A stretch of 64,000 bases of DNA from Escherichia coli (GTDB lineage: Bacteria; Pseudomonadota; Gammaproteobacteria; Enterobacterales; Enterobacteriaceae): the NCBI RefSeq assembly GCF_024502345.1, contig NZ_JALDNN010000001.1; one strand, 5' to 3'. Below are positions 18,738-19,022 of the stretch, piece by piece (the first letter of the stretch is position 1; each line of letters starts with the position of its first letter). Under the pieces are notes generated by a model. The model did not search any database, had not been told where the DNA came from, and saw only the letters and a list, made by a program, of their open reading frames with translations. Made by a program: the position numbers and the translations under genes.

Positions 18738-19022
18738 TTATTTAGAGTCTTTAAACAAGGGTAACCCCTGTGAACGCCGCCATTCTTTGACAATTTTCAG
18801 GATGTTTTCAGGCTTATCATCTCCTTGACTTTTAGGGTAGAAAATTAGATCGCTCCCTGACGGATGCTGTGTAATTTCAATAAAATGATCTACTAATGAA
18901 TCCCAGTACATTTCTAGCTCCTTACCTTTTAAGGATTTTCCATCTTTCATAGATGATCTCAATCCGCCTAAAAAATTAAGAAATTCATCCTCGGTATAAT
19001 CCTGGAGCTTTTCTTTAAACAT
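18738..19022 (-). CDS. Cognate immunity protein of the Hcp-DNase toxin (colicin E-type DNase immunity, Im7/Im9 family, 94 aa)
   Basis: Starts 2 nt after toxin stop; DYTEDEF and EHPSGSDLIFYP motifs match Im9 as recalled. Confidence 0.85.
   Translation of the reverse strand: MFKEKLQDYTEDEFLNFLGGLRSSMKDGKSLKGKELEMYWDSLVDHFIEITQHPSGSDLIFYPKSQGDDKPENILKIVKEWRRSQGLPLFKDSK

Follow-up and report, generated by a model that had tools for sequence, protein, structure and literature searches.

The open reading frame (ORF) on the minus strand at 18738..19022 of a 64,000-nucleotide stretch of Escherichia coli DNA (assembly GCF_024502345.1, contig NZ_JALDNN010000001.1; the whole stretch is referred to as the window) corresponds to an immunity gene that has been described before, the first one in the island of Usp ("uropathogenic-specific protein", also Hcp-ET), and the locus is not a new one. 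The ORF begins with ATG, encodes 94 amino acids (aa) and has a guanine-plus-cytosine (GC) content of 36.1%; its sequence is designated type A and corresponds to the orfU2/Imu2 type of the island named PAIusp. The sequence-only reading of this DNA had called it the cognate immunity gene of the toxin gene upstream, a call that is supported, although the known Usp/PAIusp locus went unrecognised. The finding is correct but ordinary, the gene being already known and annotated; publications from 2000-2002 onwards cover the gene, its family, the island and the proposed role. Considered as a whole, the best explanation, and a very probable one, is that this orfU2/Imu2-type protein neutralises the Usp DNase by way of the exosite of the enzyme. 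Established here are the family of the protein, its predicted fold, the gene arrangement, the intact active site of the toxin, the identity to the UTI89 protein and the co-variation between the toxin exosite and the first immunity (Im) gene.

The product of the ORF is 100% identical to WP_000471928.1 of strain UTI89, which carries the RefSeq annotation "bacteriocin immunity protein", and it is identical also in FDAARGOS_943. Among 5,426 complete E. coli genomes, ~1,050 possess the gene, which is invariably chromosomal and bears the same annotation; in about 955 complete genomes, it occurs at 95-100% identity. In the window, it lies between pdhR (15430-16194, minus strand) and aroP (21384-22757, plus strand), in an interval of 5.2 kb whose GC content is 39.6%, compared to 51% for the window; the minus-strand genes aceF, aceE and pdhR extend to 16227, and aroP starts on the plus strand at 21384. 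The aroP–pdhR interval of UTI89 contains a tssD gene of 593 aa and then three genes annotated "bacteriocin immunity protein", between which lie two small "hypothetical" genes, and the same layout of the island is found in UTI89, LF82 and KKo003. PAIusp was described as an insertion between aroP and pdhR that carries usp plus orfU1-3 (imu1-3) (PMC7142922). The GC contents measured here (usp 48.5%, imu 36.1/38.1/38.5%) agree with the published ones (usp 49%, imu 36/38/38%; PMC7142922). The type-A gene shares with OrfU2/Imu2 of PAIusp the aroP–pdhR site, the gene order, the position as first gene after uspII (subtypes IIa/IIb) and the GC content of 36% that the literature gives for UTI89's first imu gene. 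Both the window and UTI89 have TAA where LF82, which is Ia-like, has CAA, and their product has 94 residues versus 97.

The subtype of the island was determined by means of published primers. Two subtypes of usp are distinguished, with orfU1 always located after uspI and orfU2 after uspII (PMC3685522), and according to the citation given in the same paper, OrfU2 was proposed as the UspII immunity protein by Parret & De Mot 2002. The cited literature also gives four subtypes of the usp island. The mutagenesis primer used for uspI (Z42) in PMC3685522 encodes VKKFQIHHVVAIEHG, which is type B and is the sequence of the toxins of LF82, KKo003 and UID2309220013, whereas the window toxin has ...HHRVAIEYG; since the uspI primer is of type B and the window toxin differs from it, the latter is uspII. 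The Z42 primer orfu2R1 encodes ...FKDSKQSR, which is the C-terminus of the type-A (second) immunity gene of LF82, and this gene is 96% identical to the ORF in the window. Because the primer-encoded sequences map both types, the window is seen to contain uspII followed by an orfU2-type gene. The subtype layouts, Ia, Ib, IIa and IIb, reportedly go back to work by Nakano in 2001. The two experimental papers on the island (PMC3685522, PMC3917654) appear to name the Usp immunity genes by sequence type and not by position; thus, the name "Imu1" does not always denote the gene next to usp.

The match of the ORF to the colicin/pyocin DNase immunity family is far beyond chance. The protein covers the Pfam model PF01320 (Colicin_Pyocin) from the first to the last position (1-82 of 82; E 8.1e-30, 103 bits), and every one of the 28 PDB sequences that match it (E 2.5e-20 to 2e-10) is a DNase immunity protein. 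The best of these is the pyocin AP41 immunity protein (ImAP41; E 2.5e-20), after which come Im7, ImS2, Im9, Im8 and Im2, down to E 1e-15. A scan of the Im proteins against NCBIfam gave no family match, Pfam being the collection that covers them. An AlphaFold2 model, which is a prediction built from an 11-sequence alignment, has a predicted local distance difference test score (pLDDT) of 77 and a predicted template modelling score (pTM) of 0.70. When compared to the PDB with Foldseek, its top 39 matches are all DNase immunity proteins, with template modelling (TM) values of 0.67-0.83 overall and 0.75-0.83 for Im7, Im9, ImS2 and ImAP41, normalised by target length, and root-mean-square deviations of 2.5-3.7, while the first match outside this group has E>2. 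The predicted fold is therefore consistent with the distorted four-helix fold of the small (about 85-95 aa) Im proteins.

Helix III of Im9 contains the binding hot spots Asp51, Tyr54 and Tyr55, and helix II beside them is variable. These three residues align with D58, F61 and Y62 of the type-A protein; the replacement of Tyr54 by Phe is conservative and is seen also in ImAP41 (VIFHP). The PDB mutant entries among the Foldseek matches target exactly these hot-spot residues. As regards the signature motifs that had been quoted for the ORF, DYTEDEF (residues 8-14), GDD (residues 67-69) and VKEWRRSQGLPLFK (residues 78-91) are present as given, whereas the fourth, "EHPSGSDLIFYP", contains a one-residue transcription error: residues 52-63 read QHPSGSDLIFYP, and the Glu at the misquoted position is the residue of Im7/Im9. 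The description of the gene as Im7/Im9-like is thus borne out by the PF01320 profile, the PDB matches, the predicted fold and the helix-III residues.

Upstream of the ORF lies usp (Usp / Hcp-ET3-4, uspII type; 19025..20806, minus strand), with a GTG start and 593 codons, so that the immunity gene is directly 3' of an intact HNH colicin-type DNase domain. The distance of 2 nt from the toxin stop, as had been noted from the letters, is exact in the raw sequence: the junction reads, on the minus strand, ...CAC TAC AGG AGA TAA AT ATG TTT AAA..., with the usp stop TAA at 19027-19025, the two nucleotides AT, and the ATG of the immunity gene at 19022-19020. The toxin is 97% identical to UTI89 TssD and consists of an Hcp/TssD domain at residues 1-146 (NCBIfam TIGR03344, 124.7 bits against a cut-off of 58.9; also Pfam PF05638, E 1.5e-12), an S-type pyocin domain at residues 309-450 (PF06958, E 1e-40) and a colicin/pyocin HNH DNase at residues 460-591 (PF21431, E 6e-42); the C-terminal 141 residues of the protein match the DNase domains of AP41, E9, E2, E7 and S2 with E 1e-27 to 1e-32. 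Within the DNase, codons 513-550 (19157..19270, minus strand) align with residues about 58-97 of the E9 DNase, which we take, from what is established on the E9–Im9 complex, to be the immunity-binding exosite. The interface mutants N75A, F86A and K97A in the PDB fall inside this segment of E9, and R54A just before it. The HNH catalytic motif (19037..19126, minus strand) is intact, with H561, H562, N577, H586 and H590, and aligns with H102/H103...H127/H131 of E9; the equivalent residues are essential in UspI (PMC3685522).

As to the name of the toxin, a first guess, Hcp-ET1, was rejected, as Hcp-ET1 is a different HNH fusion of Shiga toxin-producing E. coli. The architecture, together with the identity with UTI89, indicates that the toxin is Hcp-ET3-4, which is Usp. 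The Hcp-ET3-4/ETI system of UTI89 (UTI89_C0121; Ma et al. 2017, Virulence 8:1189), as described in the review PMC6730261, has the matching combination of Hcp, pyocin S and colicin DNase domains, and its toxin is followed by three related immunity genes; it is only another, later name for the Usp locus. We infer from the described architecture that UTI89_C0121 is the UTI89 version of this locus.

The cognate pairing that had been proposed for toxin and immunity gene is supported by natural variation between uspI and uspII islands, which were represented by the window, UTI89 and FDAARGOS_943 (uspII) and by LF82, KKo003 and UID2309220013 (uspI). The window toxin and the uspI toxin of KKo003 have the same number of residues. 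Their identity is 96-97% in the Hcp, linker, pyocin_S and N-terminal DNase parts and falls to 86% in the HNH core, and residues 513-550, with 47% identity, are the sole strongly divergent part. The type of the Im gene changes along with this segment: type A follows the uspII toxins (window, UTI89 and FDAARGOS_943) and type B follows the uspI toxins (LF82, KKo003 and UID2309220013). Furthermore, LF82 possesses an intact orphan type-A DNase 3' end, 95% identical to that of the window, directly before its type-A Im gene; as LF82 keeps both as a displaced module, the type-A toxin tip and the type-A Im travel together. The Im types A, B and C differ in residues 15-57 and 64-70, that is, in helices I-II and the loops flanking helix III, and are invariant in residues 71-93. 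The same pattern of variation is known for the colicin E2/E7/E8/E9 system. The window offers a clean example of co-variation between toxin exosite and immunity protein; direct, tight binding of the UspII–OrfU2 pair is presumed.

The mechanism proposed for the ORF is the following. A small helical protein of the colicin/pyocin DNase immunity family, of the orfU2/Imu2 type of PAIusp, would be made from one transcript with the upstream usp and would bind the DNase exosite, at toxin residues about 513-557. The contact would be formed by the conserved helix-III patch (D58, F61 and Y62), with the variable helix-II surface setting the specificity, and the binding would block the access of the enzyme to DNA, so that the producer and its sister cells would survive their own toxin. 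Published experiments on the island agree with this in outline. OrfU1-His co-purifies with UspI, and its release needs 6 M guanidine (Zaw 2013, PMC3685522); OrfU1 lowers the nuclease activity of UspI; and usp with orfU1 alone is tolerated, OrfU1 sufficing for plasmid maintenance (PMC3685522). The imu genes protect the producer (PMC7142922), and, in the account of Ma 2017 given by the review PMC6730261, UTI89 Hcp-ET3-4 is neutralised by the downstream immunity genes.

Other observations weigh against this explanation. Črnigoj et al. (PMC3917654) detected no high-affinity complex of Usp with any Imu, and obtained 2.4%, 4.1% and 10.6% transformants with imu1, imu2 and imu3 alone, respectively, compared to all three together; these yields weaken the claim that the immunity gene alone is sufficient. 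The Imu3 primers of that study encode YNFKDEIE...LFKDSK, which is the type-C gene in its UTI89 form, and because they are UTI89-like, the strain was probably uspII and its imu2 probably the protein discussed here. Imu3 was assigned by these primers after an attempt by mass gave no exact match (reported 11.497 kDa, type C 11,482 Da). All three immunity genes "contributed" according to what the review PMC6730261 relates of Ma 2017, for which reason the first gene may not suffice alone. As for the protein itself, the AlphaFold2 model does not assign helical structure to the short helix III, where its pLDDT is ~68, and the Usp-linked Im types A and B have isoelectric points (pI) of 5.7-6.3 versus ~4.5 for Im7/Im9. 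The published biochemistry is contradictory on tight Usp–immunity binding, and UspII–OrfU2 is a good pair to settle the question. Weighed against this contrary literature, specific binding is still the likely model.

A different view of the whole system holds that Usp is a released bacteriocin, or a genotoxin of mammalian cells, and not part of a type VI secretion system (T6SS) pair, in which case the immunity protein would protect only the cytoplasm of the producer. In favour of this view, Usp was characterised as a bacteriocin-like genotoxin that acts on human cells (PMC4436062, PMC3917654), a lack of evidence for its secretion was noted in 2015 (PMC4436062), and purified Usp killed 0 of the E. 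coli strains tested (PMC3685522); moreover, the 64-kb window contains no T6SS gene besides the Hcp domain itself. This domain, however, comprises the first 146 residues of the toxin and passes the curated TssD/Hcp model at more than twice its cut-off, and Hcp-ETs, including the one of UTI89, are reported in the review PMC6730261 to mediate T6SS-dependent killing between bacteria. In addition, defence against the toxins of neighbours is the most sensible reason for keeping additional immunity genes of other types. The view is unlikely.

Slightly less probable still is the notion that protection does not involve a tight 1:1 complex, with the Im paralogs acting jointly, or Imu3 coating the DNA, and the first gene having a minor part. 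It accommodates the failure to find a Usp–Imu complex, and the finding that imu3 alone was the best protector of the three (PMC3917654). In the same study, Imu3 bound DNA and RNA and shielded DNA from colicin E7, and DNA binding was proposed as its way of protecting; the window holds two copies of the type-C gene; and the joint contribution of three genes reported for UTI89, again only as relayed from Ma 2017 in PMC6730261, would be expected. Yet, Imu1 and Imu2 showed no DNA binding in that work (PMC3917654), and the pI of type C, 4.7, is unusual in a DNA binder. The purification of Usp by His-tagged OrfU1, with its requirement for 6 M guanidine, and the tolerance of usp with orfU1 alone (PMC3685522) speak against the notion as well, and without a specific contact between the two proteins, the co-variation of the exosite with the first Im gene would be difficult to account for. 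Finally, a chance frame or a functionless, decayed remnant is effectively refuted: although other members of the array in the window have decayed (three dead DNase fragments and the frameshifted type-B gene), the ORF matches its profile over the full length with all family-invariant residues, is preserved with identical or nearly identical sequence in the strains and genomes enumerated above, and adjoins an intact toxin that would otherwise be lethal.

The Shine-Dalgarno sequence of the immunity gene, AGGAGA (19028..19033, minus strand), is formed by the last two codons of usp (592-593, Arg-Arg) and is spaced 6 nt from the ATG, as read on the minus strand; it is kept ahead of every Im gene in the array. 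Translational coupling to the toxin, which the sequence-only reading had put forward, is therefore present as a geometry, with a 2-nt stop-start gap and a ribosome-binding site inside the usp ORF; the strict mechanism did not find support, since the junction has no structure masking this site. The RNA fold of the junction has a minimum free energy of -11.1 kcal/mol, compared to -17.4 for shuffles (z +2.1), and is less structured than the controls, with no hairpin that would mask the ribosome-binding site. As the junction RNA is unstructured, independent initiation at the immunity gene is equally possible; judging from the geometry, close-coupled translation of usp and the immunity gene is plausible.

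At the level of transcription, a scan revealed no promoter-like site on the minus strand at 19022-19400, and between 16300 and 21400 the counts of promoters and terminators were no higher than in shuffles. Given the empty promoter scan, there is no sign of a separate immunity promoter like that of colicin E operons, and the immunity gene is presumably co-transcribed with usp. The hexamer TGGTAT (21240..21245, minus strand) is the -10 element of the P3 promoter, divergent from aroP, as judged by its sequence and by the match of a published primer (PMC7142922), which coincides with the adjoining positions 21247-21260 of the window. P3 was reported to drive usp transcription in that study, which provides the data on P3, TyrR and H-NS (PMC7142922). 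Past the immunity gene, a 10-bp stem-loop is located at 18681-18713, 24 nt from the stop codon. The same element stands behind both type-C copies, at distances of about 698 and 1396 bp downstream on the minus strand, and has no T-run; the 106-nt stretch that holds it has a z of about -2.5 against shuffles. This stem-loop could be a transcript-stabilising or weak termination element.

Compared to the colicin and pyocin systems, the type-A protein is 52%, 43% and 45% identical to ImAP41 (PDB 4uhp), Im7 and Im9, respectively, and shares with them the Pfam family, the predicted fold, the helix-III segment and the location of the gene directly after an HNH DNase. The Usp toxin, encoded on the chromosome, is fused to an Hcp tube protein, where colicins have domains for receptor binding and translocation. 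The loop between helices I and II of the Usp Im proteins is 7-8 residues longer than in Im7/Im9, a feature that ImAP41 shares, and they differ from Im7/Im9 also by Phe in place of Tyr54 and by being less acidic. Another difference from colicin and pyocin immunity genes is the array of paralogs and orphan toxin fragments that comes after the Usp immunity gene.

This array comprises three repeat units of ~698 bp downstream of the type-A gene, each consisting of a DNase 3' fragment and an Im gene, and each opening at a conserved TGGCTGGAGGTGAGTCAG (WLEVSQ) boundary; all of the members are on the minus strand. The first fragment is a degenerate 79-aa ORF (18331..18570) that starts at the WLEVSQ boundary, carries Asp in place of the first histidine of the HH pair, and has lost 1 nt, with a frameshift before the last His residues. 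It is followed by copy 1 of the type-C immunity paralog (orfU3/Imu3 type; 18040..18330), whose 96-aa product is 65% identical to that of the type-A gene. A second copy of the fragment (17633..17872), also degenerate and part of an extra ~698-bp tandem unit, precedes copy 2 of the type-C paralog (17342..17632), which encodes a protein identical to that of copy 1. The third fragment, a 62-aa ORF (16987..17175), has a premature stop after DIDN and His-to-Tyr in the HH pair. The last gene, in unit 4 and of type B (orfU1/Imu1 type; 16650..16933), is a frameshifted pseudogene: in comparison with UTI89 and FDAARGOS_943, 7 bp (TAAAATA) are deleted between 16924 and 16923, after codon 4, which leaves an N-truncated ORF of 78 aa at 16650-16886.

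Units 2 and 3 (17204-17902 and 17902-18600) are a near-identical tandem duplication of the type-C module, which is single-copy in UTI89, FDAARGOS_943 and KKo003; when the orfU3 duplication was sought in complete E. coli genomes, the best matches listed were all single-copy. The array of the window thus departs from the reference IIa layout in its duplicated orfU3-type module and its frameshifted orfU1-type gene. All three orphan DNase fragments are dead, having lost the first His of the HH pair and acquired a frameshift or a stop. The exosite is type-A-like in each of them, including the one ahead of the type-B gene, and they are mismatched with the Im gene that follows; since a type-A-like exosite precedes a type-B gene, adjacency does not equal cognate pairing for these degenerate orphans.

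It is possible, if somewhat doubtful, that the immunity genes arrayed behind usp form a cassette system that undergoes active recombination and determines which neighbours a strain can withstand. On that assumption, an unequal crossover would have doubled the type-C module in this strain, and a slip of 7 bp would have inactivated the type-B gene, while self-immunity to UspII would have been kept. The mismatch between the fragments and the Im genes points to crossovers within the ~700-bp repeats, or to gene conversion, and not to simple displacement of whole toxin–immunity modules. Because the orfU1-type gene is frameshifted, the strain may lack protection against UspI-producing E. coli; together, the duplication and the frameshift would predict a changed immunity spectrum in this strain.

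The orphan arrays of contact-dependent inhibition (CDI; cdiA-CT/cdiI) and Rhs systems likewise have repeated modules of a toxin 3' fragment and an immunity gene past the full-length toxin. The Usp array resembles them in that the fragments start at a conserved boundary (WLEVSQ) and the order of the modules varies between strains. It is unlike them in that its fragments are very short (about 80 codons), mostly dead, and mismatched to the Im gene that follows.

Two further observations concern the surroundings of the island. On its far side, between aroP and ampE, the plus strand at 22916-25272 encodes a GPH-family sugar:cation symporter (468 aa) and an adjoining ORF of 316 aa, for which NCBIfam gave no match; the pair is present in FDAARGOS_943 and is not at that site in UTI89 and KKo003. 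On the other side, at 10654-15020 on the plus strand, aceF and aceE are opposed by three antisense ORFs of 409, 230 and 757 aa; their translations are of low complexity or implausible, and these ORFs seem to result from the codon composition of highly expressed genes and not to be genes.

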